Shown piece by piece: positions 1 to 19,956 of a stretch of DNA of 64,000 nt. Every line of letters begins with the position of its first letter. The first letter of the stretch is position 1. The notes beneath the pieces were generated by a model. The model was not told the DNA's origin and made no database searches. It saw only the letters and a list, made by a program, of their open reading frames with translations. The DNA lies in assembly GCA_965214245.1 (NCBI GenBank), contig CBDCBL010000009.1, positions 210,214 through 274,213 on the forward strand, written 5' to 3'. Source of the stretch: Acidobacteriota bacterium (GTDB taxonomy: Bacteria; Acidobacteriota; UBA890). A program made the translations under genes and the position numbers.

Positions 1-1543
1 CGACGTAGTCCTCATAGCTGGACTCGAGAACGCAACGGATCGCTGTCTCAGGATCAGCCGCAGCGGCCTGCACCCCACGCAACGTGGCGATGAAGCTCTT
101 CCACCCGGGTCGCGCACGAGCGGTAAGGAGCGTGTTCACGTTACCCGTGTCGAGCTCGTCGACCAGCGCCCCGGAATCCCCGGCCGGCCCGCCGACGATC
201 CGCCAGATGCGTTCGGCGGTAACGTTGCCGATACCGGCCTGCAACAACATCACGCGTCGAAAGGCGACTTCGTCCTGTGGGTTCTCCATGAGCCGCAAAT
301 GCGCCACGACGTCCTTGATGTGCGCCTGCTCGAAGAAGCGCAGCCCGCCACGGACCTCGTACGGAATGTCGTAGCGCAGCAACGTGGTCTCGACGCTCAA
401 CCGATGGGCATGAGCGCGGTAGAGCACCGCGATGTCATCGAGGTCGACTCCCTCGTCGCGCAACTGAAGAATGCGCTCGGCGATGAAGGCGGCTTCCTGT
501 TCGGGGTAGCTACACGGCAGCAGCGCCGGCAGCATGCCGTCGGAACGGCGGGCATGCAGCGTCTTGCGGTGCTGTTCGACGTTGTGGTGGATGCTGGCGT
601 TGGTCAACGTGAGGATCTGCGGCGTGCTCCGGTAGTTGGCCTCGAGCTTGAACACTTCGGTTTCGCTGTTGCGTTCCGGGAACCGCAGGATATTGTCGTA
701 GTTGGCGCCGCGGAACGCGTAGATACTCTGCGAATCGTCGCCGACGACCATCAAGTTGCCGCCCGCCTCCCCGGCGGCCAGCGCCTCGACGATCTCCGCT
801 TGTACGATGTTGGTGTCCTGGTACTCATCGACGAGAACGTGCCGGAACTGCTCACCGTAGCGCTGGCGGACGTCGTCGTGCTCGTGGAGGAGCTGCAGCC
901 AGCGCTCCAAAAGGTCGTCGTAGTCCATCGCGTTCGCCGCCTTCTTGCGGGCGACGTAGCGTTCGGCGACCTGGTGGATCGTGTCGCTCCAGTCGAGAAA
1001 GCGACTGTAGCGATCGGCGAGGAGCCCATCGAGCGGCACACGAGTATTGGTGTGCAGCGACAACAGGCCGGCAAGCACGCGGGGCGACGGGAATCGCTTC
1101 TGCTCCACCGGAACATCGAGATCGGTCGTGCACAAGCGCAGGAGGTCGCGCTGATCGCCTTCGTCGAGGATGGAGAAGCTGTCGCTATAGCCGAGCCTGT
1201 CGGCGTGGCGGCGCAGAATTCGCGCCCCAACCGAATGGAAGGTGCCGCCCCACAACCTGTGCGGCTCCAGCTGGGTGAGCTGGCTCACCCTCCCGAGCAT
1301 CTCGCGCGCTGCCTTGTTGGTAAATGTGACCAGGAGGATTCCGGCCGGTGGTATGCCTTGGTCGAGAAGATGAGCCACGCGGTAGGTCAGCGTGCGGGTC
1401 TTGCCGGAGCCGGCGCCGGCGATGACCAGCTTAGGGCCTTCGCCGCAGGTGACCACGGCGTACTGCTGGTCGTTGAGCTCCTTGCGAAAGTCCACGTCGA
1501 CGCTTGCATGGGCCCGCTGCGGAAGTACGAAACGGCGGACCAT
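1..1543 (-). CDS. UvrD/PcrA/Rep-family ATP-dependent DNA helicase (N-terminal ~514 aa in window; C-terminus beyond window start)
   Basis: Minus-strand translation from ATG at 1541-1543 gives MVRRF...QQYAVVTCGEGPKLVIAGAGSGKTRTLTYRVAHLL...LVTFTNKAAREM (Walker A and motif Ia of SF1 helicases); ORF runs off the window edge so it is absent from the ORF track. Confidence 0.8.
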   Translation of the reverse strand, partial: MVRRFVLPQRAHASVDVDFRKELNDQQYAVVTCGEGPKLVIAGAGSGKTRTLTYRVAHLLDQGIPPAGILLVTFTNKAAREMLGRVSQLTQLEPHRLWGGTFHSVGARILRRHADRLGYSDSFSILDEGDQRDLLRLCTTDLDVPVEQKRFPSPRVLAGLLSLHTNTRVPLDGLLADRYSRFLDWSDTIHQVAERYVARKKAANAMDYDDLLERWLQLLHEHDDVRQRYGEQFRHVLVDEYQDTNIVQAEIVEALAAGEAGGNLMVVGDDSQSIYAFRGANYDNILRFPERNSETEVFKLEANYRSTPQILTLTNASIHHNVEQHRKTLHARRSDGMLPALLPCSYPEQEAAFIAERILQLRDEGVDLDDIAVLYRAHAHRLSVETTLLRYDIPYEVRGGLRFFEQAHIKDVVAHLRLMENPQDEVAFRRVMLLQAGIGNVTAERIWRIVGGPAGDSGALVDELDTGNVNTLLTARARPGWKSFIATLRGVQAAAADPETAIRCVLESSYEDYV

Positions 1544-1562
1544 GATCAGCGGCCTGTCCGCA

Positions 1563-3317
1563 CTAGCGGGCAGCTGCCGGAAGCGCCGCGTCCATCAGCG
1601 TCCAAATCGGTCCGGAGGCCTGCAGCAGTCGCATGTGGCGCCAGGTTTCCACCGGGTCCACCGGCAGCCAGGACGTGAAGGTCGGCAGGCGGACCCCCAC
1701 TGTCCGCGCCGAGAAGATGCGTTGAAATTCCTCGAACAACGTCCGGCTGGGCGGATATATCCGAATTGCTACGCGATGCCCCGGCGCGATACCTGCTTCG
1801 GCGCGCGCCGCGATCAGCGCCTCGTGCAGGCCGCCCAATTCGTCGACCAGGCCGCTGTCGGCAGCTTGCTGCCCGGTCCACACGCGGCCGCCGCCCAAGG
1901 CATCGACCGCGTCCGCCTCCATGTCGCGGCCGGCGGCAACAAGGTTGATGAAGTCGTCGTACGTGGCGTGCACGCTGGCGTCGAGAATGTCGGCCTGTTC
2001 GGGGCGCAACGGCGCCGCGTCGGTGAGCAGATCGGCGTTCTCGCCGCGCTTCAACATCTCGTGGTTAATGCCGAGGAGCTTGTACGTTCCTTCCAGGTTG
2101 ATGCGACCCATGACGACGCCGATCGATCCGGTGTAGGTGCCGGGATTGGCGAGCACCCGGGTCGCGTGTGCGGCGATCCAGTAGCCCCCCGACGCCGCCA
2201 CGTCGGACATGCTCACGACGACGGGCTTGCGCTGCGCCGCCAGCTCGATCTCGCGTCCCATCACGTCGGCGGCGGTAACCGCGCCACCGCCGCTGTCGAT
2301 GCGCAGCACGATGGCCCGTACTGTGCTGTCCTCCCGGGCTTCACGGACATAGCGCGCGATCGTCGTTCCTGCCGCCACGTCGGCGCCAAACAGCGAATTC
2401 TCGAACTCGCCGGGAACCATGATGCCGCTGATGTTGATCAAGGCGATGGTGTCCGCCTGCCCGAAGATGTCGCGCAGTCCCGAGCTCTCCGTGGCCCCGA
2501 GGTAATCGCGCACGCTGACCCGCCGCGGCGAGCGGCCGGCAATTTGCACCAGCCGATCGCTGATCTGGTCCCGATATCCGAGCTCGTCGACGAGGCCGTC
2601 GGCGAGCGCCTGGCGCGCCGACACCAGTCCGCGATCAAAAGTCGCTTGGAGCGCCCCGCGCTCGAGGCCGCGATCCGCCGCGACGCCGTCGAGCCACTGG
2701 CCATAAAGGCTGTCGAGCAGGCTGTTGTCCATCTCGCGCTGCGCGTCGGTGAGCTCGCGGTTGGTAAACGAGTGCATGAGTGTCTTGAAAGGACCGCTGG
2801 TGAACACCTCGAACTCGACACCGATCTTGTCGAACAGGTCGCGATAAAACGGCTCCTGCACCAGAAAGCCGAGAATCAGCTGGCCGGTCGGTATCTGGTA
2901 AATCGTGTCGGCGGCGGCTGCCAGGTACATGTCCAGATTGGTGCCGTTCTCCAGCAGGGCAACCACCGGCTTGCCGGTGTTCCGGAAGTGGTGTACCGCG
3001 GCGCGAATTTCTTGTGCCTTGCCGTAGCCGCTGAGAACCGGCCCGATATCGAGAAAGATGGCCGCGACGCGATCGTCCTCCGCCGCCCGACGAATGGCTG
3101 CGTCGATCTCGCGTACGGTCAAGGGGCCGAGGAAGGGCCCGCGTTGGGCCATCTCACCGATGGCGCCACGCAGCGGGATCTCCAGGACGGTGCCGGAGCC
3201 GAGCGTGGCGCTGCCGCCCACCAGCATGCGGTTCAGACCCCACACGAAGACCGTGAAGACGAGCAGGAAGAAGAGAAACGTCGTCAGGAGCCAGAGGCCG
3301 GTGCGTTGGGATGCCAT
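1563..3317 (-). CDS. sppA: signal peptide peptidase SppA (protease IV, 67K type)
   Basis: 584-aa ORF with N-terminal TM segment and two ClpP/crotonase-fold halves typical of long SppA ([13 protein letters not shown]..., AASGGYWIA...). Confidence 0.85.
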
Positions 3318-3378: not shown

Positions 3379-3656
3379 TCAGTACCGCACCGCGAAGCCA
3401 TCGATTTCACCGCGCGGCGTCTCCCAGCGGACTTCGACGTCATCAACGCGCGCCCCCGATGGGGGGGGTGTCCGTGCCCACAGTAGTCGAGAAGCGCCTC
3501 ACAAGCCGATCTCGGGCCCTCTGCGACCGCCTCCACCCTGCCGTCCGGCAAATTGCGCACCCAACCCGAGAGTGCCAGGTCGGCGGCGCGACGCACGGTG
3601 CTGGCGCGAAAGAACACGCCTTGAACGCGACCCCTGACCCGCAGCTCGAGGCGCAC
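3379..3656 (-). pseudogene. acyP: acylphosphatase, interrupted by a frameshift in a G8/C8 homopolymer (3467-3474)
   Basis: GTG start at 3656 gives [48 protein letters not shown]...LLDYCGHG; after the 8-nt homopolymer the conserved C-terminus [28 protein letters not shown] is read in the adjacent frame, ending at TGA 3379-3381. Confidence 0.7.
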
Positions 3657-3673
3657 GGTGACGGGCGGAAGGC

Positions 3674-4087
3674 CTATTGCAGGTCGGTGCGGAACGTCTC
3701 CATCCTGATCTCGCGAGCCGGTCCCCAAATCGAGCTCTGCGTGCCGACTACCAGCGTCAGACTCTTGCGCGCCGCGTTGTCGTCGACAATTTGCCAGCGA
3801 ATGTATCGATCCGGGTCGCCGTTCCACGGATCAATCGAGTAGTTGGCATTCGATCCGACGATCGAGCCGCCGGCAGCGAGGTCGGCATGCGTGAAAGGCA
3901 AGGCGCGCATGATTTCCATTTGCTCGACGCCGGCTGCGGTCAGTTCTGTCATTTCCTGAGCCACCGCCGACGTCTGCACGGCCATCAGCATCATTGGCGC
4001 CACCGCCAACGAGATCAGGCCGACGAGGAACGTGGCCACCAGCACCTCGACGAGGGTGAAACCCGAAGCGTCTGTCTTTCGGATCAT
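3674..4087 (-). CDS. type IV pilin-like / pseudopilin (prepilin-type N-terminal cleavage-methylation domain)
   Basis: [31 protein letters not shown]: class III leader ending in Gly followed by F and hydrophobic helix with E5; ORF track 3674..4117, start taken at second Met. Confidence 0.6.
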
Positions 4088-4118
4088 GCGGGTGTTCCTT
4101 ACTGTGAACGATCCCAAC

Positions 4119-5933
4119 CTAGCACACGAATGGTGTACACGTTCGGCGTGCCGGGGGGAAGGTTGGCCGGGGGTCGAGGAAGTCGGTGTCGAAGCCCCAG
4201 TTGCGGATCGGCGCCGTGTAGATGGGGTTGCCGTAGCCCCACGCTCCGGTGGCGATCACCGAGTTCCACAGGTCGACGATGCTGCCCCGGTACAGCAGCG
4301 TGTCGCCACTCCAGCGCTCGATGAAGCGCAGCACGTTCTCGACGCCGCCGTTGTAGGCAACGCCGGGCACCGTGTCGGTGTTGCCCAGCATCAGCGCGGC
4401 GTTCACCGTCGTGCTCCAGGCGTTGCGGTTGTTCATCGATAGCTGGCTGTACTCGAGGTCACCGTCGCCCGCGTCCGTAGTGTCACCGTCGCCGTTCACG
4501 TCGCCCCAGCGGTTCGAGAGGATCGTGATGGCGGCGGCAATGACCGCGGCGCCGACCTTGTTGACGTCGTTGTAGTCGCCTTGGACGTAGGTCGGGTTGT
4601 CGCTCACGACCGTCACCGCGGCGTTCAGCTCGCTGCCATTATGCAGCATGACGCCGAAATGGCTCTCCAGCCCGCCGTTGGCCCAGGGTGGCGTGTAAGC
4701 GCCTCCCGCCCACGGCGGCGCGGGTTGTCCCACGCCGGGAAACCGCCAGCGGGATTGAAGCCACCAGCGTAGACGATGCCGTTGGCCGGCCAGCCCGGGC
4801 TGCGACCGAGTTTCGCCATGTCGATCTTCGTCACCAGGATGAATTTCTGCTCGCGCGGGTCCCAGAAATCCTCCTGCACGATGGCACTGGTCGCCGTGAC
4901 CGGATCGATCAGCGATACGAGGTTGCCGTTGTTCTCGTACCCCTTCCCGTTGATGATCCTCAAGTCGGCCTCGTACCACATCTTGCCGTCGATCTGGCCA
5001 GGCGTGTCGCCCACCAGGCCGGGTTCGATGATCATTCGCGGATTCGTCGGATCGTCGATGGTCATGTTCAACGGCTCGATGCCGTGCTCGGAGCTGCGCA
5101 CGTTGCCGTCCCAGCGGTTCAGCGCGTCGTCGTGCCAGTTCGGGCTGGTGGAGAGTCCAGGCCCGACATTCCCTGGAAGTTGCCGTCGGCATCGCGGATC
5201 TCCACGTCGCCGGCGCTCGTCCCGCCGTTGTTCTTGCGGAAGTTGAAGATGTCACCGGCTGCCGTCATCACCGCGTCGACGGTCAGTGTGTTGCCGCCGT
5301 CGATGTAGATGCTCTGGTTGCTGTGCACGCGACCCGCTAGCCACATGTCCGGTCCCGGCAGAAGCTCTAGGTCTTCCTCGTAGAAGATGGCGAACTGGAA
5401 GATCGGGATGATGTCGAAGTTCGACGTCATCGTGACCGTGGAGGTGCCGACTGGCTCGACGATGGTCGCCGCGGTGGCCGTGACTGTGTAGGGCACGGTG
5501 AGGGCAGTCAGGCCCTGATAGAGTAGCCGCTGGTCAAGGGCGCCTGCGTGAGCGGGCCGCTGGCCGCTACGGTGAATGTTGTGAAGGTGCTGCCTGGCAG
5601 TGGCGGCACGGTGATGGCCGCGAGCTCGGCAGCGGTGAGATGGCGGGACTTGCTCCTGCCCAGCTGGAGGAGCTCGTTGAGGCCGTATTCGGCGCCGCCG
5701 TCGGCGGCGAAGAACGCCTGGTTGGAGCCGCAGTAATGGCCGGTGAGCTCTACCTCGGTGCCGGCGATACGCGCCAGAGTTATGCCCGTCAAGGCGACGA
5801 TGAAGAGCGTTAACATGGTGATCAACAGCGTCATCCCGTCTTCGTTGCACCACGACTGGACGCTGTTCAACCTGCGTTTTCTGTTGTTTCCGCTCATGTC
5901 AAGCCTTCCTCGGTTCGTCCGTTGTCTTGCCAC
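4119..5933 (-). pseudogene. large type IV pilus PilX-N-domain protein (~600 aa), reading frame broken three times by single-base homopolymer indels
   Basis: Four consecutive minus-strand ORFs (5508..5933, 5119..5853, 4625..5101, 4119..5255) each contain a protein-like segment. N-terminus is PilX_N-like (GMTLLITMLTLFIVALTGITLA). Junctions (~5521-5527, ~5130-5140, ~4711-4718) are each restored by adding one C/G to a 2-3-nt run: SIRA-LTALTVPYTV, DSPPA-PNWHDDALNRW, AWDNP-APPWAGGAY. Confidence 0.5.
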
Positions 5934-5934
5934 C

Positions 5935-6742
5935 TTATGAGAGCACCATCGCGCGTGGCGTCATGCGCGTGGTGAGTGTCGTCGAACGTGTTTGATTCGT
6001 GTTCAGCTTGTTGTCTTCGGTCTCGATCTCGAGTGTTATTTCGACCGTCCGGATGCGGAGCTGCATCACCAGGGTGTTCGGGTTGAATTGCACCGCCGGC
6101 AACGAGTCATCCCAATAGATGATGTTGGTTCCGCCGGCCACGACGTTGGTGGCGATCGGCGCAACGGCATTGTTGTCTTCCTGGCGCACCAGCGTGAACA
6201 CGCCGCCGTTGTTCTGCAGGAAGTAGCTGATCGTCATAACTCGAGCCACTGCGGTTCCGTTGGCAACCGTGTACGCCTTTGACGCACCGGTGTGACTGAT
6301 CCGGTCGTTGGCTGCATCGATCGCCGTGATCGTGACGAAGTCGATGGAACCGCCGGAGTCGTACACGGCGAGTTGCATCCCCACCATAAAGCCGGTGACG
6401 TCGTCGACGGAGAAAGCGTCGTTGTTATTTGCCATATCGGCGACGAAGGCGGCCATGATGCCGCCCTGGTTCTGCCGGATGTCGATCCCGCCGTCGGCGC
6501 GCGGGATGATCACGGGGGTCGGCGGCAGTAACCACAACAGGCCGACGCCGGCGATCTGGATATCGCGCTGCATCTGGTCCATGGCGATACGCACCGCCTG
6601 CTGCGTGTCGATGAGCTGCTGGGAATCGCGGTGTATGTCGTTGAGCTCGACCGAGCATGGTCATGGCACCACCGACGACCATCAACGAGACCAACCCGGC
6701 GACCATGAGCTCCAGCAAGTTGGTACCGCTCTCCTCGGCCAT
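5935..6742 (-). pseudogene. type IV pilus assembly PilW-like minor pilin, one frameshift near 6647-6656
   Basis: N-terminal ORF (6425..6835) gives MAEESG/TNLLELMVAGLVSLMVVGGAMTML then nonsense; frame -1 continues VELNDIHRDSQQLIDTQQAVRIAMDQMQRDIQIAG... (ORF 5935..6594); removing one G in ctcGGtc joins them. Confidence 0.5.
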
Positions 6743-6839
6743 CAACCGCGGCAGGCGCGAATTTTCTATCGACTCGCTGATCTTCAAAATGTTTGCCTTC
6801 ATGCCGGAAGCCATCTCTTTGATTGCGTGTGGCACGCCT

Positions 6840-6965
6840 CTTTGGAGCGCCCGTACGTGTTAATCATTAATAGACTCGAAAACATACTATAAGACATAAA
6901 ACTATTTATATCAGCGTGTATAAGTCCTTATAAGTTATAAAAACACAAAGTTGATCAGGCTTTCC
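6840..6965. promoter_or_regulatory. AT-rich (~30% GC) divergent promoter island between the minor-pilin operon (minus) and the Wzy_C gene (plus); three TATAAG direct repeats
   Basis: ttaatcattaatagactcgaaaacatactataagacataaaactatttatatcagcgtgtataagtccttataagttataaaaacacaaag stands out in a 68% GC background; TTGACA at 6967-6972. Confidence 0.4.
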
Positions 6966-7165
6966 TGCTTGCGCACTGTGAAGGGCGTTTGACAAACGAC
7001 CTTCAGCGCCCCTATCCACTAGACCACAAATTACCTGCCCCGCGAAACGCCGAAAGCACGTCTTTTCACGCAGCCCGGCCTTCTACCCAGGAGACTTCCG
7101 GTCGCCTTGGCCTGCCCCCACACAACGGCTATCGTTGCCCTGACCGGGAGGCTGTTTCCGTTGCC

Positions 7166-8449
7166 ATGAGTGCGTCCGTGCCGCGTTCCGTTACCGAGCA
7201 GTTGCTGTGGATTTCCGGCGGCATGGCGCTCATATGGACGCTCTCCATGCCGCTGTCGGTGGCCGTCGCCGAGGCGGCGCTGTGGCTATCGGCGGCGCTG
7301 TGGGCCGTCGCCTGGTTGCGGCGCGAGCTCGGGCCGAATGGCGCCGAACCGCCCGCCGCGCCGGGGCCGGCGGGTGACGCTCTGGGCCTGGTGGGCGCCC
7401 CCATCATCGTCTTCTTCGCCGTTTCCTTGCTCTCCGCGGCCCTGTCGCGCGACAGCGTGGCCAGTGTCCTGGAGCTGCGCGAGCTATTTTTGTTCGCGGC
7501 GCCGCTGGTGACCTGGGCGACGTTCCGCGACGCGGCGGCGCGAGACCGCGGGCGCCTCATGTTCGGCATCGGCATCTTCGCGTGCACCGCCATGGGCTTG
7601 GCGCAAACGTTCGTGCATTTCGGCGACGCGATGTTCCGGCCCACAGGATTCCTCGGCCACTGGATGACCTTCTCGGGAATGCTGTTGATCGGCGTACCCC
7701 TGCTCCTCACGATCCGCTGTGGCGCGCGGCGCTACGCCGCACAAGCCGCGGCGGTATTGGCTGTCGGGATGATCGCCCTCACCATGACCCGCAGCGCTTG
7801 GATCGGCTGTGCCGTTGCCCTGGTCGTCTTCTTTGCGAGCGGGCGAGTGCGCGGCCTGGAGCCCTCCGAAACGGCGCAACCGCCTCGTCTCCGCCCCGCC
7901 CTCTACGGCATGACGTTGCTCATCGGCATCATCATCGTGGCGTTGCTGGTGGGTGCGATTGCCGGGCCTGATGCTCTCTTCAATCGCGCTGCCAGCATCT
8001 TCTCGATGAACGCGCCAAGCAACGTCGATCGCCTGGCAATGGCGGCAACCGGTCTGCGGATCATCAGGGCCTACCCGTACTTCGGCATCGGACCGGGCCT
8101 GGTTGGCGAGGTGTACTCCGCGTGGGTCGTCGATTGGGGGGTACGTGACGACAATCCGCATCTGCACAACAACATCATCCAGATCGCCGCCGAGCGGGGG
8201 CTGGTGGGTCTGGCCGCCTGGCTGTGGATGATGGCGGCACTTCTGGTGGTCGCCTGGAGGGTGTTACGCGCCGTGGGTCCGGACGGCGAAGGAGGACCGG
8301 AAGCGCGAGCCGCTCTCGCAGCCCTGCTCGGCTTCCTGTCCATGGGGATGTTCGAGTACAACTTCAGCGATTCTGAAGTCCTGATGGCCCTCCTGTACGT
8401 CGCCTCGCTACCGTTGGCGGCTAGTGCGGGGATGGGGAGGAAGACGTAG
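7166..8449 (+). CDS. O-antigen ligase family (Wzy_C) polytopic membrane protein; candidate pilin O-oligosaccharyltransferase (PglL/PilO-like) or WaaL
   Basis: Roughly 10 predicted TM helices, MTRSAWIGCAVALVVFFA and a periplasmic loop typical of Wzy_C; ORF track starts at TTG 6989 but first ATG with membrane start is 7166; divergent from the pilin operon. Confidence 0.65.
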   Translation: MSASVPRSVTEQLLWISGGMALIWTLSMPLSVAVAEAALWLSAALWAVAWLRRELGPNGAEPPAAPGPAGDALGLVGAPIIVFFAVSLLSAALSRDSVASVLELRELFLFAAPLVTWATFRDAAARDRGRLMFGIGIFACTAMGLAQTFVHFGDAMFRPTGFLGHWMTFSGMLLIGVPLLLTIRCGARRYAAQAAAVLAVGMIALTMTRSAWIGCAVALVVFFASGRVRGLEPSETAQPPRLRPALYGMTLLIGIIIVALLVGAIAGPDALFNRAASIFSMNAPSNVDRLAMAATGLRIIRAYPYFGIGPGLVGEVYSAWVVDWGVRDDNPHLHNNIIQIAAERGLVGLAAWLWMMAALLVVAWRVLRAVGPDGEGGPEARAALAALLGFLSMGMFEYNFSDSEVLMALLYVASLPLAASAGMGRKT

Positions 8450-8559
8450 GGGAGATTCGCGGCGGGGTGGAATGCTCCGATTTGTTTGAATACCCGCCGC
8501 CCTCCCCCTCCGGAAGTCGCGTTCCGCGTCTTCCCGGCCCGCTTTTCCACAGGTGTGAG

Positions 8560-9126
8560 TCAGGCGCCGGCCAACCCTAGCTCGCCAGCAATCCCCTGCA
8601 ACGCAGTCAGCACATGCTCGACGTGCTCGTCCATCGGCATGTCGATCTCGGCGGCGGCGGCGCGCAGGTGGTCGCGGTCGACGGCGCGGCAGAATGCCTT
8701 GTCCTTGAACTTCTTGGTGATCGACTTGACGGGTAGGTCGAGCAGGCTCTTGGTCGGGCGGATTAAGGCGCAGGCAACGATGAAGCCCGACAGCTCATCG
8801 ACGGAGTAGAGGGCCTTGGCCATCGGTGTCTGACGCGCGACGCCGGTGTGGTCGGCGTGGCCGAGAATCGCATCGACGATCTCGTCCGGGTAGTCGAGCA
8901 AGCGCAGAATCTCAGCGCCGGCAAACGGGTGCTCCTCGAGTGACGGGTGCTCCTCGTAATCGAAGTCGTGGAGCAAACCGGTCACACCCCACAGAGCCGC
9001 ATCACCGTCGAACCGCTCGGCGTAGTATCGCATCGCGGCCTCGACGCACAGCGCGTGCTTGACGAGATTCGGGTTCTTGGTGTGCTCCGTGAGCAACGTG
9101 TAGCACTGCTCGCGGGTGGGTGTCAT
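8560..9126 (-). CDS. HD-domain phosphohydrolase (HDIG-like)
   Basis: 188 aa with H...HD...H...D metal-binding pattern (HALCVEAAMRY, LLHDFDY, GHADHTG). Confidence 0.7.
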   Translation of the reverse strand: MTPTREQCYTLLTEHTKNPNLVKHALCVEAAMRYYAERFDGDAALWGVTGLLHDFDYEEHPSLEEHPFAGAEILRLLDYPDEIVDAILGHADHTGVARQTPMAKALYSVDELSGFIVACALIRPTKSLLDLPVKSITKKFKDKAFCRAVDRDHLRAAAAEIDMPMDEHVEHVLTALQGIAGELGLAGA

Positions 9127-9133
9127 CGGCCTG

Positions 9134-10165
9134 CTAGGCGCCGGGTACGATGCCGCCGAGTGGGTTCTCCAGATTGATCACCACGGAGCCGTTCAACGAC
9201 ATGATGCCGAAGCCCTCGACGATTGCCTGAATATTGCCGTCTTCGGCGAGCTGACGCAGCTCGGCCGGCGTCCTGTTGCGCAGGGAACCGCGCACGATGA
9301 CACACTCGCCTTCGAGCCGGTCGAGGCCCCAGCGCCACTCCGAGAGCAGCCGCTGGTTGTAATAAACCTGGGCACGACGACCTTCCTCGTCCTCGACGAT
9401 AAAGTACGGAGCCAGCTGTAGTGTCTGCCAACCGACGAGGCGGACGCCGTGCAAATCGATGAGCCCGCCCTGCAGGCGGTTGACGGTTTGAATGTAAAAT
9501 GTATCGTCAGACAGGTCGGCCAGCAATGCCGGCGTACCGGCGGGGTGCACGCCGGAAGCCAAACGCAGTTCACCCGTCTCGACGTACGGAACCGTGATCT
9601 CGGCACCGTTGGCGATGATCTTCAGCTGGTCGAGCTCGTCGAGCTCATCCTTGCTGAAACGTTCTTCCTGTTCGGAGGTGAGAGTCGGCTCGAGCGGTAT
9701 CCAGCCGAGACCGGATTCGAAAAGGCCGAAAACCCGGAGGGCAACCTGCTGCCCCTCGCTGAGCTCCAACAGGTCCATGTTGTCGCCGGCGATGAGAATG
9801 TCGGTGAGTGGGGTGTCGGCTTCGTCACCGATCATCCCTGGGGCCGGGCAGGCGCCAACGTTGGATCCGCTGCCTGCGGAGCCTGATTCGGAGGTCAACG
9901 TGATCGAGTCGGTGTCGATGTGCTTGACGGTCAAGCCTTCGAGGACGACCTCGATGCTCGAGGGCGGAGCGCCCAGCGAACGAAGCATCGGTTCACGCGG
10001 ATGGCTCGGGTTGTCCATGTACGCTGGCAGCGTCATGACCTGCGGGTCTTCCTTCAGGTAGTAGTTCTGCCAGTAAGGAATGGCCATCACGTAGTACGCG
10101 AAGGCCGATGCCAGAATCAGGAGCGCCCAGTTGAGGGGATCCCTGAGAGTGTTCTTAAGAGCCAT
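9134..10165 (-). CDS. hypothetical membrane-anchored protein (N-terminal TM, acidic extracytoplasmic domain)
   Basis: 343-aa ORF, protein-like composition, 8-nt gap to the downstream HD gene (operon); no family recognised. Confidence 0.5.
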   Translation of the reverse strand: MALKNTLRDPLNWALLILASAFAYYVMAIPYWQNYYLKEDPQVMTLPAYMDNPSHPREPMLRSLGAPPSSIEVVLEGLTVKHIDTDSITLTSESGSAGSGSNVGACPAPGMIGDEADTPLTDILIAGDNMDLLELSEGQQVALRVFGLFESGLGWIPLEPTLTSEQEERFSKDELDELDQLKIIANGAEITVPYVETGELRLASGVHPAGTPALLADLSDDTFYIQTVNRLQGGLIDLHGVRLVGWQTLQLAPYFIVEDEEGRRAQVYYNQRLLSEWRWGLDRLEGECVIVRGSLRNRTPAELRQLAEDGNIQAIVEGFGIMSLNGSVVINLENPLGGIVPGA

Positions 10166-10279
10166 CTGATGATCCTCAGTTCAGTAAACGCGCAAGATTT
10201 CCCCCGCAAAACGGGCCGATTATAGCTGCACAAGATCCAACCTGTCGAGCACATGCGAAACCGATTCTGCCAGGCGCAC

Positions 10280-11284
10280 CTAGTCGGTGGCGGTTTCTGC
10301 CGCAAAGCGGTCGAGATCTTCACGCCGCCCCAACACCAGCAACGTCGAACCAGCTTCAATAGTTTCGTTCGGCGACGGGTTGAACGCAAGCGTGTCGTCG
10401 GGTTGCACGCGCCCCACGACCAGCAATCCGAAACGGCGCCGGATGTCGGTTGCGCCGAGTGTTCGACCGGCGAGTGATGAATCTTCGGCAACCCGCAGCT
10501 CCTGCAACTCGAGTTCTTCCATGGTGGCGTGCCCCGACACGATGTCGATGAACTCGACCACGGTCGGGTTCAACACGGAGTGCGCCATGCGGTGGCCACC
10601 GATGATGTTCGGCGAAACGACGCGATCGGCACCCGCCGCGTTAAGCCGCCGTTCCCCGTTGTCGCTGATCGAACGCGCCAGAACGAAAAGGTCCGAGCAC
10701 AGGTCTTTGCTCAGCAGTGTCACGTAGACGCTGTCGGCTTCGCTGGGCAGCGCCAAGATGAGCCCCTTGGCGCGTTCCAGCCCGACGGCAAGCAGTGTTT
10801 TCTCTTCGGTAGCATCGCCGCAAAAGTACAGGTAGCCGTCACCCTCGATCCGTTCGGTCATTCTTTCGTTCGAATCGACGACGACAAACGGCGCGTGCGC
10901 TTTGGCGAGATCCTGGCACACGACCCTACCGACGCGGCCGTAGCCGCAAACGATGTAGTGTTCGCTCAACCGCATGATGTCGCGTTCCATTCCCCGTTTT
11001 CCTACGATGTCGCGGAGCTCGCCTTCGAAAATGGCCCGGGTAACCCCGGCTACCAGCAGGGAGATCGCAGTCAAACCGAAGCCGATCAAGGCCACCGTGA
11101 TCACCTTGCCCGTGTCGGACAGCGGCTGCACCTCACGGAAACCGACGGTGCTCAACGTGATGACGACCATGTAGAAGCTGTCGATCAACCTCCAGCCTTC
11201 TACATAGTAGTAGGCGAGCGTCCCCCCGATTACCGTAAGGGCCAACATCGGTAGGGCCCAACGCAACAGTTTCGAGGTTCCCAT
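10280..11284 (-). CDS. ion channel with RCK domains (TrkA-N NAD-binding + TrkA-C); pore filter TVGFRE is not a canonical GYG
   Basis: Two TM helices + pore helix (VITLSTVGFREV), then Rossmann GxGxxG (IVCGYGRVGRVV) and TrkA-C. Confidence 0.7.
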   Translation of the reverse strand: MGTSKLLRWALPMLALTVIGGTLAYYYVEGWRLIDSFYMVVITLSTVGFREVQPLSDTGKVITVALIGFGLTAISLLVAGVTRAIFEGELRDIVGKRGMERDIMRLSEHYIVCGYGRVGRVVCQDLAKAHAPFVVVDSNERMTERIEGDGYLYFCGDATEEKTLLAVGLERAKGLILALPSEADSVYVTLLSKDLCSDLFVLARSISDNGERRLNAAGADRVVSPNIIGGHRMAHSVLNPTVVEFIDIVSGHATMEELELQELRVAEDSSLAGRTLGATDIRRRFGLLVVGRVQPDDTLAFNPSPNETIEAGSTLLVLGRREDLDRFAAETATD

Positions 11285-11286
11285 GC

Positions 11287-11772
11287 TCAGTCCGAGTCGG
11301 GCGCCTCGTGAATCGTCGAGAAGCTGAGGATCTCGTAGCTTTTCAGCCCGCGTGGGGTCTCGACCTCGACCTCGTCGCCCCCATGTTTGCCGATCAACGA
11401 ACGACCGATGGGCGACGAAACGGAGATCTTGCCGTTCGGTGGGTCGGATTCGTCCGGACTCACGAGCCGGTACGTCAGCTCGTTGTCGGTATCCAGATCG
11501 AGGAGTTCGACGAGGGACCAGAAGCCGATCGAGTCGCGCGGAATCATGCGCTCCTCGATGTTGGCGAGCGACTGTTTCTTTTCGTACAAGCGCGCCAGCT
11601 GCGCCTGTACGAGATCCTTGCGCGCTTTGGCGGCGTCGTACTCGGCGTTCTCGCTCAAGTCGCCATGCGCCGCCGCTTCGGCGAGCTGACGCGGCAGCTC
11701 GACCTTGAGCTCGCGTTCCAGCGGCCCGATCTTGTCGTCCATCTTCTTCAAGAGCTTTTCGCGAATGCCCAT
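11287..11772 (-). CDS. greA: transcription elongation factor GreA
   Basis: 161 aa MGIREKLLKKMDDKIGPLERELKVELPRQLAEAAAHGDLSENAEYDAAK...; the longer ORF-track ORF (11287..12399) is N-terminally extended into the upstream gene in another frame. Confidence 0.9.
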   Translation of the reverse strand: MGIREKLLKKMDDKIGPLERELKVELPRQLAEAAAHGDLSENAEYDAAKARKDLVQAQLARLYEKKQSLANIEERMIPRDSIGFWSLVELLDLDTDNELTYRLVSPDESDPPNGKISVSSPIGRSLIGKHGGDEVEVETPRGLKSYEILSFSTIHEAPDSD

Positions 11773-11812
11773 CAGCGGAGTGTAACGGTCGAGAATCGGG
11801 CTGCCAAACTTG

Positions 11813-12892
11813 CTAACGGCGCCGCACGCGGCCGAGGGCAGCTTGGGCGGCGAACATCCCGGGCTCGATGCGCAACGCCCGCTGGTAGGCGCGTTCTGCT
11901 TCACGCGGCCGGTCTTGATACTCCAGCGCCAGTCCCAGGTTGTACCAAGCTGCCGCGTCGTTGCCCCGCGCTTCGAGCACCCGACGAAACGCAGCTTCGG
12001 CGGCTGCGTAGCTCTGTTGCAACAACGCAATATTGCCGCGGGTGGCCCGCGCGTCGACGTCGTCGGGGTTGTTCTCCAGCAAGCCATCGAGAAGAGTCGT
12101 TGCTTCCTCGTAGCCGCCTTGATAGAGCAGCGTGCGGGCGAGGTTGTAGCGCGCGTAGTCGTACGCGGGGGCAAGCTCCAGGGCGTGGCGAAAGTGCGTC
12201 GCCGCCGTTTCGAGCTCGCCTTGGTTGAAAGCACGGATGCCGAGTGACGTCCAATACTGCTGGTCGTCTGGTCCCGGCGGGCCGATGCTGATGATCTCGG
12301 GACCGATCTCGACGCGTGGGTCTTCCCGCGACTCGTAGCTACCGGGCGCGGCGTTGAAGTAGTACGCAACCGGCTCCTCGAGCTCATCGCCCGGGGCAAC
12401 GCCGGCGAACACCTCCGTCATGTAAAGGACGTATGCGCCGGCGCGCGACAAGCCGATGCCGGCGTGGGTGAACTCCGGATTCATTCGATTGCGGCGGTGA
12501 CCGTCGCTGCGCATGAGCGCGGCGTGCAGGTGCTCGACGCTACGGTTGCGGGCCACGTTCTCGCCCAACAACGGCACGGTGGGGAACGAGATCCGCAAGC
12601 GGCGTTCGGACGACAGGTTGAATTCATAAGAATGGTGCGAGACACGCCCGATCTCGGACTGCTCCTGACTCTGCCGACGCGCCAGTCTGCTCAGCGACTC
12701 ACTCGGGCGGAGCACGGCAAGTCCGGCGGCGAGCCGCTCGCTGTTGAGCAGCTCGAGTGCCCGCATCTCGAGGTTCTCCAGTTCCGGGTCCGGAGCCTGC
12801 TGGGCGCCGGCCCCGCCGAACGAGGTGCTGGCAAGCACGAACGCCACGCCGATCAGCGGCCACCAGGGCACCGGCAGGCGTCTGACGCTCAT
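11813..12892 (-). CDS. secreted CAP/SCP/PR1-like domain protein fused to C-terminal TPR repeats
   Basis: Signal peptide, CAP motifs (GHYTQVVW-like region, HLHAALMRSDGHRRNRMNPEFTHAGIG), then 3-4 TPR repeats (WYNLGLALEYQDRPREAERAYQRALRIEP). Confidence 0.65.
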   Translation of the reverse strand: MSVRRLPVPWWPLIGVAFVLASTSFGGAGAQQAPDPELENLEMRALELLNSERLAAGLAVLRPSESLSRLARRQSQEQSEIGRVSHHSYEFNLSSERRLRISFPTVPLLGENVARNRSVEHLHAALMRSDGHRRNRMNPEFTHAGIGLSRAGAYVLYMTEVFAGVAPGDELEEPVAYYFNAAPGSYESREDPRVEIGPEIISIGPPGPDDQQYWTSLGIRAFNQGELETAATHFRHALELAPAYDYARYNLARTLLYQGGYEEATTLLDGLLENNPDDVDARATRGNIALLQQSYAAAEAAFRRVLEARGNDAAAWYNLGLALEYQDRPREAERAYQRALRIEPGMFAAQAALGRVRRR

Positions 12893-13353
12893 GAGAACAG
12901 GATCGCCACCGTTCCGCAGGCCAGGTTGAACTGCATCGACAGCAGCGCGGTTTGGTGCAGGCGGTCGAACTCGGTCTGCTGCTCTCCCGCCTCTGCTCCC
13001 GCCGTTTCATCGCGCAGCGCTCGGATACGTGGCGACAGGACGAAGATGGAATAGATCGCCGACAGGCTCATCAACGCGATGCAGACGTACTCGATGGCGT
13101 ACCAGGGAGACCAGCGCCCGTACCAACGCACCATCAAGACACTCGAAAGAATCAGCGCCGTGATACACACCAGAACCACGCCGTCGAAGCGCTGCAACGC
13201 GCCGCCGACGATTCTCCCCGCCAGGCTACGGTCGGGGGCTTCCTTGAAAGCGATGGGCGCAACGATGATGCCGATGGCCACGATGCCGCCGACCCACAGG
13301 GCGAGCGCCATCGTGTGCAGGAAATGCAAGACAAGAAACGTCCAGTTCGGCAT
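12889..13353 (-). CDS. DUF4149-like small membrane protein (4 TM)
   Basis: 154 aa, four hydrophobic helices; 4-nt ATGA overlap with the downstream CAP-TPR gene. Confidence 0.5.
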   Translation of the reverse strand: MPNWTFLVLHFLHTMALALWVGGIVAIGIIVAPIAFKEAPDRSLAGRIVGGALQRFDGVVLVCITALILSSVLMVRWYGRWSPWYAIEYVCIALMSLSAIYSIFVLSPRIRALRDETAGAEAGEQQTEFDRLHQTALLSMQFNLACGTVAILFS

Positions 13354-13391
13354 GGCACACCTGGTCGAGTGGCTGTAAGGCGCGGCGCCGC

Positions 13392-16217
13392 TCAGCGGCG
13401 CTCGCCGGGGCGGACGCCATAATACCCGGGCCGCGCCTGGATGCGCCCTCCCCTACCCTTCAGCGTCACTTCGAGTTGTCGCCACTCCCCGTCCCATTGC
13501 TGGTTGGCCGGGTAGTACGAAACGGAATACTGGCTCTCGAGCTCAGCCGCGATCTCCGCATAGACGTTCTCGAGCTCGTCGAGCCGCAGCGGGAAATACG
13601 CGGAGCCGCCGGTGATCTCCGCCAGGGCACGCAGGTTTTCGACGCTCTCGCGCACCGCGTCGCTGGCGTCGCCGAGCTCCGTGGCGTCATGCATCAGTTG
13701 CAGGCCGACCGTGTACACCAGCACGTCGGACTGTCGCGTGTACTCCAGAACATCCGGAAAGTCGAACCTGCTGTGGACATCAAGGCCGTCCGACAGCACG
13801 ATGAGGGCCCGTCTTCCGGTACGGCGGTTTACCTTGCGCAGCGACTCGACCATGGCGTCGAACAGCGATGTAGCACCGTCGGAATGCATCGATGCGATGG
13901 CGGCGCGCAGCGCCTCGACTTCGTTGGTGAAGTCGGAATACAGATACAGCCTGTCGTTGAAGCCGAGCACCATGGCACGGTCGTTGCCACGCAACAGCGT
14001 GTCGACGAGCTTGTTGGCACCGGCCTTGGCGCTGGCAATGCCGCCGCCAATCATGCTGCTACTGGTATCGATGAGCATCGCCGCGGAAATCGCCGTGTCC
14101 TCGCCCTTGGCGAAGCTCACTACCTCCTGCATCACGCCGTCCTCGACAATCTGAAAATCCTCGGCTGTGAGATCTTCGATAAAACCGCCGCCGGGCTGTC
14201 GGACGGTGACGTTCAGAGTGACCAGGTCGACGCTGGCGCCGAAACCGAGGACGTCACTCCGCAGCAGCACGCGCGAATCGGTCGCGATCCGCCCGCCGGT
14301 GCCGACGGCGACGACCCGCAGGGCGAAGATGTGCTCGTCTTCGCTGGCCGCAAATGTCACCTGAGCGTTGGAGCCGGCGCCGCGGCCGACGATCTGATCG
14401 TTGACGTACAGCTCGGTCATCAGTGCCGGCGGTCCATCGACGGCAACCGAGAAGTTCATCTCGCCCAGCGGAATCGCGTTGACCGCAGGACTGATGATGC
14501 GCACCCCGAAGTCCTCTTCGTACGCCGACCCGGCAGCCGGATCTCCGGCGTTCGCGGGTGGACCGTTGTCGTCGAGCGCCGCTTCGGTTCGCACACCGCC
14601 ACCGGGGATCGTCAGCTCTGCTACGGGTTCGATGGTTTCGTTGGCGGCCAGGCGTTCGAGCGGCGAACCGTCAGGTCCGGTGGCCGCCGCCGGCATGCGG
14701 ATGATCAGATAGGAGTTCAGCAGATCCGCCGGATCGCGCAGGAGACGCTCGGTGAGCGCCTCGGGATCATCGGCGCGCCAGTACCGCGCCTCGATTCGCG
14801 CGCCCCCCTGGCCGCGGCGCGGGAACTCGACGAAGTCGCGCGCCATGCGGCTCTCGCCGGGTGGCAAAACCACAAAGACGCGCCGCTGCGTGCGGGCCGC
14901 AGGCCGGGCAATCCACTGGGCGCTCACCAGCAAACCGAGCCCCACGGGTTCTTTGCTCAGGTTGGTGAACGTGACGGTGAACTCCTCGACCCGCTTGCGA
15001 CCGACCTGTTTGATCTCGCCGCTGAAATGCAACTCGCCGATCTCGATCTGCTCGTCGAGGGGGAAAAAGCTGCGAATCCTGTCCGCACTCCCGAATCCGA
15101 AACGGTTATTGCTGCGTTTGACGTCGGGCAAACGGCCTTCGGGATCGAGGCGGACCTCGACGGGGGCGGCGGAGATCTCGATCTCCCACGGTTCCGTTTG
15201 TGTGCTCGCGGGGATGTCGGCATAGAGCCGCTCGCCGGTAGCGAGCCGCACTTCGACCTGCGCCCAGGTGGGGATCTCGCTGGCGCGGGTTACTTCACCG
15301 GAGATCCGTGTGCCTGCGTCGGTTACTTTGACGCGCGCCAAGCCGAGGTCCACTGCGGCGGTCGGTTCGAGCCAGGCGTCCAAGAGGACTTCAGGACGGG
15401 GCATGAGGTCGGCAGGCAGATTGCCGACCGCGGTCTCTCGAATGCCTCGCGCCGCCGGGGCGTTGGCACCCAATAGCAACAGGTTGTTGACCGCGGCCTC
15501 GCCGTACAACCCCTCGAGCAAGCGAAACGTTCCGTAGGCCTTGCCGCGCGCCGCATTGCCGGTGGCCGCGGCGCCGGCGCCCTCGAGCGGCACCGGCTGA
15601 CGCTGGCGTATGGCGATGGAGTAGGCGCTGTCGAGGTTGTACAGGATCGGCGTTGTCGCCCGAGCCCGGCGCGCCAGCACCTCGGTCAGGTACAGCGCCG
15701 CTCCGTCTGTCCACCAGGCCTCGGGATCTTCGGCGTCGGCGAAGTAGAGGCGGCCGAGTGCATACGCCATCAGCCAGGTGGCATAGCCCGTCGCGAACGC
15801 CACACCTTGATCCTCGGCGAGAATCGCGAAGGGATCGTTGAAATGAATCACCGGCCCGTTCGGCGTTTGCTCCAAGCGGACGCTGGCCGAGGTCTGCATG
15901 GCAACCATCGGGTCGGGCGTCCAGCGCAACTCGCCGGCGGGCACCTGGAGGCCGATGATTTCCTCCAGTGCCGTCGCCGCGTCGTTGGCGTAGCCCGCCA
16001 GGCGGAGGGCCCATTGCCCGCGATCGGCGGGGGCCACCAGCCGCACGGGCGCGGCGGACAGCTGTAACGTCTGCGGGGCCTGGGTCGCGGCCGGACCGGA
16101 GTACGCGGGTGCCGGCGCCGACGAAGCCGTGGCCGCGCAAGATATCGCAACTGCCACGACTGTGGCCATCGCGAACGAGCGGTGACGGGTTGCAACAGGA
16201 GGGAGAAACAAGGGCAT
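13392..16217 (-). CDS. large secreted protein with C-terminal von Willebrand factor A (VWA) domain
   Basis: 1030-aa ORF; likely start MPLFLPP... (16217) then signal peptide MATVVAVAISCAATASSA; MIDAS motif DTSSSM...DGATSL...SDG near the C-terminus. Confidence 0.6.
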   Translation of the reverse strand: MPLFLPPVATRHRSFAMATVVAVAISCAATASSAPAPAYSGPAATQAPQTLQLSAAPVRLVAPADRGQWALRLAGYANDAATALEEIIGLQVPAGELRWTPDPMVAMQTSASVRLEQTPNGPVIHFNDPFAILAEDQGVAFATGYATWLMAYALGRLYFADAEDPEAWWTDGAALYLTEVLARRARATTPILYNLDSAYSIAIRQRQPVPLEGAGAAATGNAARGKAYGTFRLLEGLYGEAAVNNLLLLGANAPAARGIRETAVGNLPADLMPRPEVLLDAWLEPTAAVDLGLARVKVTDAGTRISGEVTRASEIPTWAQVEVRLATGERLYADIPASTQTEPWEIEISAAPVEVRLDPEGRLPDVKRSNNRFGFGSADRIRSFFPLDEQIEIGELHFSGEIKQVGRKRVEEFTVTFTNLSKEPVGLGLLVSAQWIARPAARTQRRVFVVLPPGESRMARDFVEFPRRGQGGARIEARYWRADDPEALTERLLRDPADLLNSYLIIRMPAAATGPDGSPLERLAANETIEPVAELTIPGGGVRTEAALDDNGPPANAGDPAAGSAYEEDFGVRIISPAVNAIPLGEMNFSVAVDGPPALMTELYVNDQIVGRGAGSNAQVTFAASEDEHIFALRVVAVGTGGRIATDSRVLLRSDVLGFGASVDLVTLNVTVRQPGGGFIEDLTAEDFQIVEDGVMQEVVSFAKGEDTAISAAMLIDTSSSMIGGGIASAKAGANKLVDTLLRGNDRAMVLGFNDRLYLYSDFTNEVEALRAAIASMHSDGATSLFDAMVESLRKVNRRTGRRALIVLSDGLDVHSRFDFPDVLEYTRQSDVLVYTVGLQLMHDATELGDASDAVRESVENLRALAEITGGSAYFPLRLDELENVYAEIAAELESQYSVSYYPANQQWDGEWRQLEVTLKGRGGRIQARPGYYGVRPGERR

Positions 16218-16338
16218 GATCTGAGTATAGCATCGGGCCTCTGGCCGCACGTAGTTGAGCGGTGCCTGTTCCCGTGCTACGATCGGGCGTCCTGAAAGCC
16301 GCCTAACCTCTTTGTTTTCAGTTAGTTGCAGATTTCCT

Positions 16339-17643
16339 ATGGCGAGCGAACGCTTCCAGGTTGTCGTCGTCGGCGCCGGACTCGCCGGCACGGCCGCAGC
16401 CTTGACTCTGGCGCGCGAAGGCGTGGAAGTCCTGGTTATCGAGCGCGGCGATTTCCCGGGCGCCAAGAACCTCTTCGGCGGCATTCTCTACACCGGTGTT
16501 CTCGCGGAGTTGATACCCGAATTCTGGAACAGCGCCCCGATCGAACGGCACGTGGTGAACCGTCGCTGGGTGGCCCTCGATGAAGAGACGCAAGTTGCTC
16601 TGGATCTGAAGAGCGCGCGCTTCGACCAGCCGCCCTTCAACAACACGTTCACGGCGCTGCGCTCGAAGTTCGACCGCTGGTTCGCGGAGCAAGCCGAGGA
16701 GGCCGGCGCTTTCATCATCAGTGAGACCCCCGTCGAGGAGCTTCTCTTCGAGGGCGGCAAAGTAGTGGGCGTGCGCACGGGGCGCGACGACGGGGACGTA
16801 CTCGCTGACTGCGTGATCCTGGCGGAGGGCGCCAACGCCTTACTGGCCGAGGCCGCCGGGCTGCGCCAGCAGATGGGACCCACCAACCGGGTCAACGCTG
16901 TGAAGGAAGTCCTGGCCTTGCCCCCCGAGATCATCGAGGACCGGTTTCACCTCGAGGGCAACCAGGGCGCTGCCTTCGAGTACTTCGGCGGCGCCGTGAA
17001 AGGCATGATCGGCTCGTGCTTCATCTACACCAACAAGGACAGCATCTCGGTGGGCGTCGGTTGCTTGATCGAGGATTTTCTGCGCACCAAGACGGCTCCC
17101 TACGAGCTGCTGGACTACTTCAAGGCGCACCCGTCGGTCGCCCCGTTACTACGCGGCGCGGAGACCGTCGAGTACGCCACGAAGATGATCCCGGAGGATT
17201 CGTACAACGACCTGAGCGACCTCTACGGCGATGGCGTCATGCTGGTTGGTGACTGCGCCGGTCTTGTGAATCCCTCGATACACCACGAGGGCACCAACCT
17301 GGCGATGGCGTCGGGCGTGTTCGCCGCCGAGACGGTGCTGGAAGGCCGCCAGAAAAACGACTGGTCGCGCGCCACACTCGCCGGTTATCGGCGGCGGCTC
17401 GACGAATCATGGGTCATGAAGGACCTGGCGCACTACCGCGACACGGTTCACTTCCTGCGCACCAACCGCGAGTTCGTCGACGACTATCCGAAGCTCACCG
17501 TCGAGCTGTTGCGCAACTACTTCACCATCGACGACACGCCGAAGCCGGAAGTGCGCAAGCGCCTCATCCGCAAGGTTCGCGACGAAGTCGCGTTCCTGAA
17601 GGTAGCGCGGCAGCTGTGGAAGGCCCGCAAGACGTTGGTCTAG
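16339..17643 (+). CDS. fixC: FixC: FAD-dependent electron-transfer-flavoprotein:quinone oxidoreductase
   Basis: MASERFQVVVVGAGLAGTAAALTLAREG (FAD Rossmann), full-length similarity to FixC/ETF-QO; followed by fixX. Confidence 0.85.
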   Translation: MASERFQVVVVGAGLAGTAAALTLAREGVEVLVIERGDFPGAKNLFGGILYTGVLAELIPEFWNSAPIERHVVNRRWVALDEETQVALDLKSARFDQPPFNNTFTALRSKFDRWFAEQAEEAGAFIISETPVEELLFEGGKVVGVRTGRDDGDVLADCVILAEGANALLAEAAGLRQQMGPTNRVNAVKEVLALPPEIIEDRFHLEGNQGAAFEYFGGAVKGMIGSCFIYTNKDSISVGVGCLIEDFLRTKTAPYELLDYFKAHPSVAPLLRGAETVEYATKMIPEDSYNDLSDLYGDGVMLVGDCAGLVNPSIHHEGTNLAMASGVFAAETVLEGRQKNDWSRATLAGYRRRLDESWVMKDLAHYRDTVHFLRTNREFVDDYPKLTVELLRNYFTIDDTPKPEVRKRLIRKVRDEVAFLKVARQLWKARKTLV

Positions 17644-17693
17644 CCCTAGTGTGCTGAAGAACTCCCAAGGGCGCCTGCTACAGTGGGGTCATC

Positions 17694-18005
17694 ATGGCAA
17701 TCGAAGTCAAAGAGTACTTGAAGCCGCATGTGAGCCTGTCGATGGCCGAGCGCCTCGACTTGGTGCGGCGCCGGTTCGCTGAGGATAGTCACATCGAAGT
17801 CGACCAGGAGGCCTTCAAAGCCGACGTGGATAAGGCGGTGCTGTTCATCTGCCCCGCCCAGGTTTTCAAGCTCAACGAGAGCGCCGACACCTGCATCGTC
17901 AACTACGAAGATTGCTTGGAATGCGGTACCTGTCAGGTGGCCCGCCGCTACACGACGTGGCGCAATCCTAAGGGGGGCTACGGCGTTACCTATCGTTACG
18001 GATAG
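17694..18005 (+). CDS. fixX: FixX ferredoxin-like protein
   Basis: 103 aa, cysteine motifs CPAQVF...CLECGTC typical of FixX, immediately downstream of fixC. Confidence 0.8.
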   Translation: MAIEVKEYLKPHVSLSMAERLDLVRRRFAEDSHIEVDQEAFKADVDKAVLFICPAQVFKLNESADTCIVNYEDCLECGTCQVARRYTTWRNPKGGYGVTYRYG

Positions 18006-18028
18006 TTTTCCAACCCGCCCCGTTCCGC

Positions 18029-18358
18029 TTAACCGACTCCCTTCCTTACAAACACCCGGTACCGCGCCTCCTCCTTCAGCAGCCCCAAGTATTCGTTACC
18101 TGTACTCATGCACCAGGCCGGGATATCGATTTCTACTCCCGCATCATCGGCAAGCAGCAGCAGCACTCCGCCGGCGGGGATATCGCCAATACGGTCCTGT
18201 GTACGAATCACCGGCTCGGGACAAAACGTTCTGAGCGCGTCGACGGTGATCACGGGCTCGAGCCCAGCCAGCTCGCCGCCGGTAAGTGTGCCGTGAACGT
18301 GCCGGTAGATGTCGGGATTGCGCTGCAGTCGGCGGCCCCCGGCAGGGCGCTGCCTCAA
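18029..18358 (-). CDS. TusA/SirA-family sulfur carrier protein (CPxP motif); true start probably internal
   Basis: LDARGLKCPEP-like motif VDALRTFCPEPV...GGVLLLLADD...DIPAWCMSTGNEY; 4-nt overlap with upstream PP-loop gene. Confidence 0.6.
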   Translation of the reverse strand: MRQRPAGGRRLQRNPDIYRHVHGTLTGGELAGLEPVITVDALRTFCPEPVIRTQDRIGDIPAGGVLLLLADDAGVEIDIPAWCMSTGNEYLGLLKEEARYRVFVRKGVG

Positions 18359-19482: not shown

Positions 19483-19488
19483 AGGACG

Positions 19489-19950: not shown

Positions 19951-19956
19951 GGTCGG

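Follow-up and report, generated by a model that had tools for sequence, protein, structure and literature searches.

The 64,000-nucleotide stretch of Acidobacteriota DNA analysed here (the window, 64.5% GC) carries on its minus strand, at positions 3379-6814, an operon of four genes in the order PilW-like (pilW), PilX_N (pilX), a 137-aa prepilin-type gene and acylphosphatase (acyP), in which the coding frame is broken at six sites. We consider it likely, with a probability of roughly 0.65, that these breaks reflect the real decay, specific to this lineage, of an HpsA/B/C-like minor-pseudopilin operon. The operon would no longer be under selection in this species and would be decaying. The six breaks would be real mutations fixed in the strain lineage, namely a +1 change in pilW, four 2-nt insertions in pilX that are mostly tandem duplications and an insertion in acyP ending in a run of eight G (G8), and different strains would have gathered different disabling mutations in the same operon. 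We favour decay because scaffolds of the same species carry different lesions in these genes, because contigs of different strains share the lesions and because the cluster has lost genes in this lineage.

Sites and kinds of the frame breaks

Three-frame translation and a frame plot of the GC content at third codon positions (GC3) revealed jumps of the coding frame within pilW, pilX and acyP. The genes and their lesions are as follows.

5935-6814, minus strand: PilW/HpsC-like minor pseudopilin, pseudogene; one extra base at 6651-6652, within the segment coding for the N-terminal hydrophobic helix
4099-5897, minus strand: PilX_N/HpsA-like protein of about 596 aa, pseudogene; four 2-nt insertions, at 5520-5523, 5150-5155, 4719-4722 and 4169-4173
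3674-4087, minus strand: PilV/HpsB-like minor pilin of 137 aa, the sole intact gene of the operon; matches to PF07963 and TIGR02532
3379-3656, minus strand: acylphosphatase gene, frameshifted; one break at the G8 run at 3461-3468; the rebuilt protein matches PF00708

The lesions were typed by comparison with intact orthologous loci (L003, L010, L004 and L008), with the closest other lineage (L013) and with four scaffolds of the same species (L014, L015, L016 and L047). The single +1 site among the six was that of pilW, where CTCGGTC stands against CTC-GTC in orthologs. Removal of one base gave a 292-aa open reading frame (ORF), and the rebuilt PilW-like protein aligned over 99% with intact homologs of 288 aa at 82-83% identity. 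All four breaks in pilX were +2: TACTCTATC against TA--CTATC at 5520-5523 (AG.AG on the plus strand), GACTCTCC against GACTCT--A or GA--TTCC at 5150-5155, CCCGCGCCG against CC--CGCCG at 4719-4722 (GC.GC), and GACCCCCGG against GA--CCCGG at 4169-4173, where a G5 run stands against G3. The last of these, near the 3' end of the gene, was recognized because the conserved C-terminus FLDPANLPPGTPNVYTIRVLGWDRSQ sits in another frame than the sequence preceding it. When 2 nt were removed at each of the four sites, a clean 596-aa ORF was obtained, equal in length to the intact ortholog P0119. The rebuilt protein was colinear with intact homologs of 596-602 aa; those of 597-602 aa, from Acidobacteriota metagenome-assembled genomes, reached 80% identity and covered 98-100% of it.

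The acyP break falls in the longest G/C run of the window, and either G6 or G9 would restore the frame. Compared at this site with the closest orthologs (GHG-PSG or RRG-PSG), the window is longer by 8 nt and the long-read contig L001, described below, by 11 nt; the G8 run is therefore part of a larger insertion. The rebuilt acylphosphatase scored 88 bits against PF00708 over profile positions 2-84 of 85. As assembled, the domain is split at G8, and a complete domain in a single frame was found only after repair. Uninterrupted pilin frames, as expected of a functional minor-pilin operon, were found neither in pilW (one break) nor in pilX (four breaks). The dinucleotides duplicated at the +2 lesions are CT, CT/TC, CG, CC and CC, and three of the events are duplications of CT or CG outside any homopolymer.

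The breaks were confined to the operon. When about 40 other ORFs of the window were scanned against Pfam, complete domain coverage was found with one exception, an enoyl-CoA hydratase gene with an in-frame TGA. Six frameshifts in 3.3 kb thus stand against about 57 kb in which none was detected. At 1-3300 and 7000-16500 the genes are as long as the corresponding ones of relatives, and the lesions end at the operon borders, where the flanking S49 peptidase and Wzy_C genes are intact.

A preliminary description of this DNA had reported five single-base homopolymer frameshifts concentrated in acyP, pilX and pilW and had argued from their clustering against uniform sequencing error. Translation, the GC3 plot and the colinearity of the rebuilt proteins with intact homologs confirmed that the breaks are present in these three genes. 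The clustering was borne out as well, the crotonase TGA at 62701-62703 being the sole other break, and the argument drawn from it was right. The break at 4169-4173 had been missed, and comparison with the same-species scaffolds and orthologous loci left a single-base change in pilW alone, the other five of the six sites being of another kind. Some of its coordinates also need correction: the second pilX site lies at 5150-5155 instead of 5130-5140, the third at 4719-4722 instead of about 4711-4718, and the G8 run at 3461-3468 instead of 3467-3474.

Two explanations related to the form of the lesions were examined and rejected. The distances between lesions (707, 549, 429, 372 and 1130 nt) had no common period by inspection, as an artefact at polisher window boundaries would give, and the duplicated dinucleotides are neither TA nor any other single target, as footprints of transposon excision would be. 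No methylation or restriction motif common to the +2 sites was seen except for an ACT>ACTCT context at two of them.

The operon in other contigs, strains and lineages

All six lesions were found again in contig L001 (ENA ERZ25069191, contig ctg586109_7x_l, 497 kb), and neither sequence has a private lesion in the pilin block. L001 differs from the window by 16 single-nucleotide polymorphisms (SNPs) and two small indels over 14 kb. Another 20.8 kb of the contig showed 14 SNPs and was free of indels, and there was no frameshifting indel difference over the 35 kb of overlap. The G8 run of acyP has the same length in both, with an adjacent 3-nt duplication in L001. The exact broken protein fragments of the window are on record on three contigs, as is a protein identical to the intact 137-aa pilin. 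Two protein variants specific to the window gave no recorded match when they were looked up.

Contig L046 (ERZ25070530, ctg117651_2.14x_l), which corresponds to window 14126-31751, is from the same strain as the window and matches it over 10.7 kb without a mismatch. At 2.14x by its contig name, it was used as an internal control for the type of error that the platform makes at low coverage. L046 showed four indels relative to the window, each of ±1 in C/G runs of 2-4 bases and none of +2; through two of these indels a GAF-SpoIIE and a MiaB-like gene are split. A +2 change was thus found in five of the six pilin-block lesions and in none of the four L046 errors (Fisher p=0.024). No known haplotype varies in length at the lesion sites, and strain mixing should therefore not create the lesions.

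Different lesions were observed in the four scaffolds of the same species (98-98.5% identical), which we take to be short-read because of their SPAdes-style or 'scaffold' names. The four pilX +2 insertions were absent from all of them. Their pilW contains a GAG>TAG stop plus a +1 identical to that of the window (the extra G in L014), and their pilX contains TAC>TAG and TGG>TAG stops and a 7-nt deletion by which one copy of a tandem 7-mer is gone. The scaffolds depart from the pilX sequence at window 4329 (L014 2319-2429) and 4737 (L015 1653-1804, L016 1080-1190), with an identical junction in L015 and L016, which come from two ENA analyses. The unrelated tails of these three scaffolds gave no match among the sequences compared, one tail resembling part of a housekeeping enzyme gene, and the junctions could be rearrangements or chimeras. 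Scans of JGI metagenomes and GTDB genomes gave no same-species locus, L025 being just 79% identical.

In L013, the closest other lineage, whose block is 89% identical in nucleotides, pilW1 (within 9107-9985) carries an independent -1 at 10 nt from the +1 of the window, and the resulting 239-aa fragment occurs on two contigs. Further frameshifts in L013 are a +1 in pilX1 and a break that splits pilW2 (12280-13094) into 206 and 72 aa, and its flanking genes are intact. The intact 596-aa P0119 lies on another contig of the L013 lineage; look-ups did not return contig positions for it or for the likewise intact P0121.

The order of the cluster in L010 and L013 is pilin-pilW1-pilX1-pilin-pilW2-acyP-pilX2. 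Three of these genes, namely the first pilin, pilW2 and pilX2, are missing from the window lineage. Between pilW and the AT-rich region that adjoins the operon, relatives have an additional pilin gene, and the sequence comparison suggests that the first pilin gene was deleted in the window lineage. An acyP gene accompanies the pseudopilin cluster in L010 (6884-7168), L013 (13097-13387), L044 (611-898), L005 and L007; it follows the second PilW-like gene in L010, L013 and L044 and precedes the second PilX-like gene in L010 and L013.

Lineage-specific substitutions were polarised with L013 as the outgroup. In pilX they numbered approximately 7 nonsynonymous to 1 synonymous in the short-read lineage and 3 to 3 in the window lineage, with P>L and D>A among the latter, at positions that do not vary between homologs; the substitutions look unconstrained in both lineages. 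The ratio of nonsynonymous to synonymous rates (dN/dS) against L013 was 0.12-0.31 for the pil genes and 0.10-0.22 for the flanks, which gave no separation. Any decay would therefore be recent, and these ratios do not discriminate further.

Decay weighed against other explanations

From the recurrence of the lesions, their kinds and the independent damage in sister strains we infer that they lie in the DNA rather than in the consensus. Selection on the operon may have been relaxed, or loss of the pilus may have been favoured, for example as an escape from pilus-dependent phage. Genuine decay of a minor-pilin operon had been one of the options offered in the preliminary description, and it is the one that the differing sister-strain lesions, their recurrence across strains and the gene loss in the cluster favour.

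The alternative that survives best, which we nevertheless regard as rather unlikely, is a long-read consensus artefact. The +1 of pilW would then be true and the five +2 changes would be errors at a variable locus spanned by few reads, with uncorrected read errors or a mis-polished consensus carried into every assembly with overlapping data. The coverage was low according to the contig names, '2.14x' for L046 and '7x' for L001, the latter of which we take to be a coverage value from a metaMDBG-style header. The lesions of the window lineage are all insertions, without a stop codon, and for ordinary decay the ratio of indels to substitutions is too high. Structural variability of the locus is seen from the breaks of the short-read scaffolds in pilX; the +2 insertions are confined to long-read contigs; and the window and L001 are without differences across exactly the pilin block. 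In a paper on the same assembler family (PMC13087279), the frameshifts of long-read metagenome assemblies are for the most part regarded as errors.

Errors of this type are indeed alike to the lesions in that small indels split genes of a long-read contig with low coverage, as in L046. They are unlike them in several respects. Two contigs that belong to different strains by their SNPs have all six lesions in common and none private, and no frameshifting indel separates them in 35 kb. The errors of the platform at 2.14x are ±1 changes in homopolymers, whereas five of the six lesions are +2 and three lie outside any homopolymer. The cluster of lesions is restricted to one operon and stops at its borders, and sister strains were broken independently. 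The strain-collapsed or low-coverage assembly considered in the preliminary description is disfavoured by the same evidence, that is, by identical lesions in SNP-distinct contigs, by errors of ±1 and by haplotypes that do not vary in length. In the comparison with other assemblies of the same lineage that it had proposed, the lesions recur in L001, and the short-read scaffolds carry the pilW +1 and other lesions and none of the pilX +2 insertions.

Several points weigh against decay. Five +2 changes and no -1 make an unusual natural indel spectrum, and with some nine private substitutions, five indels are many for neutral decay. Once repaired, the pilX ORF is free of further defects, and the lesions would therefore have to be recent. 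The differences between strains in pilW are 6 synonymous to 2 nonsynonymous (binomial P=0.003), an odd excess that fits poorly with an old shared inactivating +1; recombination or a recent spread of this +1 could, speculatively, be the cause of the synonymous bias. The window and L001 are identical across 3470-6750 (P ~0.015), which also fits a stretch built from the same few reads. Finally, all contigs bearing the +2 insertions seem to come from one low-coverage long-read project, and those without them are all short-read and from a different strain, so that platform is confounded with lineage.

The sole unusual element of the decay reading is its bias towards +2. It is a doubtful proposition that a single local mutational process left all five 2-nt insertions within 2.1 kb, for which a burst of error-prone repair synthesis or end-joining fill-in of breaks with 2-nt overhangs are possibilities. 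Taken with the independent knock-outs of this operon in sister strains and in a sister lineage, it would suggest recurrent and possibly phage-driven inactivation of this pseudopilin system in wild Acidobacteriota. A preprint on yeast describes de novo duplications of 2-4 bp arising from end-joining repair of staggered double-strand breaks with trapped topoisomerase II (bioRxiv 10.1101/2020.05.03.075358). The lesions here are alike in being short tandem duplications of non-repeated sequence; yeast is, however, a eukaryotic system, and the parallel is a lead only.

Slipped-strand phase variation, with the G8 run of acyP and perhaps other short runs acting as reversible on/off switches, is very improbable. 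The length of the run and the restoration of the frame by one added base would suit such a switch, as the preliminary description had suggested for this tract. However, the run is equally long in the window and L001 though the neighbouring bases differ by the 3-nt duplication, and it lies within an 8- or 11-nt insertion absent from orthologs. The remaining lesions duplicate 2 nt of non-repeated sequence and would not be usefully reversible, and several independent lesions per gene would be pointless for a switch. Least probable of all is expression through transcriptional slippage or a programmed ribosomal frameshift: once repaired, the ORFs are clean, and the pilW differences are mostly synonymous, but one gene would need four shifts, inspection by eye (no formal motif scan was made) showed no slippery heptamer and no stop or rare-codon context at any site, the insertions are absent from all relatives, same-species strains without them have stop codons instead, and the pilW shift of the sister lineage is of opposite sign.

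Identity of the operon and meaning of its probable loss

Judged from sequence, the operon is a type IV pilin-like minor-pseudopilin operon that resembles the cyanobacterial hormogonium polysaccharide secretion (Hps) system and is not a member of the Hps family. Genes were called prepilin-type by a G|FxxxE cleavage/methylation motif followed by a hydrophobic helix, as detected by PF07963 or TIGR02532. The 137-aa pilin passed both prepilin N-terminal models (PF07963, 26.9 bits with a cut-off of 21.2; TIGR02532, 20.7 with a cut-off of 16.3). In PilW the motif G|TNLLE was visible by eye, and Pfam gave no match; the predicted mature N-terminus (window 6720-6740) reads GTNLLE, against GFSLLE in relatives. 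The PilX_N protein scored 23.4 bits against PF14341 with a cut-off of 25.5, and many of its full-length homologs carry a precomputed PF14341 match. Its Asp/Gly-rich stretch GDVNGDGDTTDAGDGDL (window 4470-4520), which is kept in homologs, resembles a calcium-binding loop.

The operon has in common with type IV minor-pilin operons (FimU-PilV-PilW-PilX) and with type II secretion system pseudopilins the G|FxxxE-type leader, the hydrophobic helix and the presence of PilW-like and PilX_N genes in one operon, and its homologs are named 'PilW family protein' and 'PilX N-terminal domain-containing pilus assembly protein'. It differs from the type IV operons in that PilY1 is missing, an acylphosphatase gene is embedded in the cluster and two genes are pseudogenes. 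Classical PilX is also far shorter than the PilX_N protein of about 600 aa encoded here. Among NCBIfam models, HpsA for pilX, HpsB for the 137-aa pilin and HpsC for pilW were the best or among the best matches, and a Wzy_C polysaccharide-type gene adjoins the operon. The scores are far below the curated cut-offs (HpsA 54.8 against 400, HpsB 20.6 against 150, HpsC 25.6 against 200) and therefore indicate resemblance, not membership.

The region between the operon and the divergent Wzy_C gene contains one further feature.

6840-6965, no strand assigned: AT-rich region (33% GC) with the palindrome TTAATCATTAA at 6860-6870

The palindrome is kept in L013, and together with its AT-rich surroundings it is probably the promoter/operator of the operon.

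Two features elsewhere in the window were noted. In the enoyl-CoA hydratase gene (ECH_1, window 62350-63180, minus strand) the TGA at 62701-62703 is preceded by Pfam profile positions 4-133 and followed by positions 135-250. In the context GLVPD*GATFWLPRLI the stop occupies the place of one expected residue, profile position 134, presumably the conserved Gly of the crotonase motif, in which case the change would be GGA>TGA. This gene is a second possible pseudogene, or the stop is a substitution error. Between the BFN-domain and MiaB-like genes, at window 24850-24916, an 18-nt direct repeat GTCAAGGAATCTGCAGTC flanks 31 nt. L046 (about 6835-6998) has approximately 165 nt more at this site and the L001 contig aligns discontinuously there; by this comparison the region appears to be an intergenic element that varies.

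A decaying pilin-like operon is an ordinary, familiar kind of thing. The broken genes ought to enter annotations as pseudogenes, without silent repair, and the case illustrates that a lesion can be separated from long-read error without the reads, by means of contigs from sister strains together with an error control, here a contig of the same strain with very low coverage. The ongoing loss of an HpsA/B/C-like pseudopilin operon from an uncultured Acidobacteriota species, by lesions that differ from strain to strain, would be a modest biological result, and the run of 2-nt insertions, if confirmed, would hint at an uncommon mutational signature.

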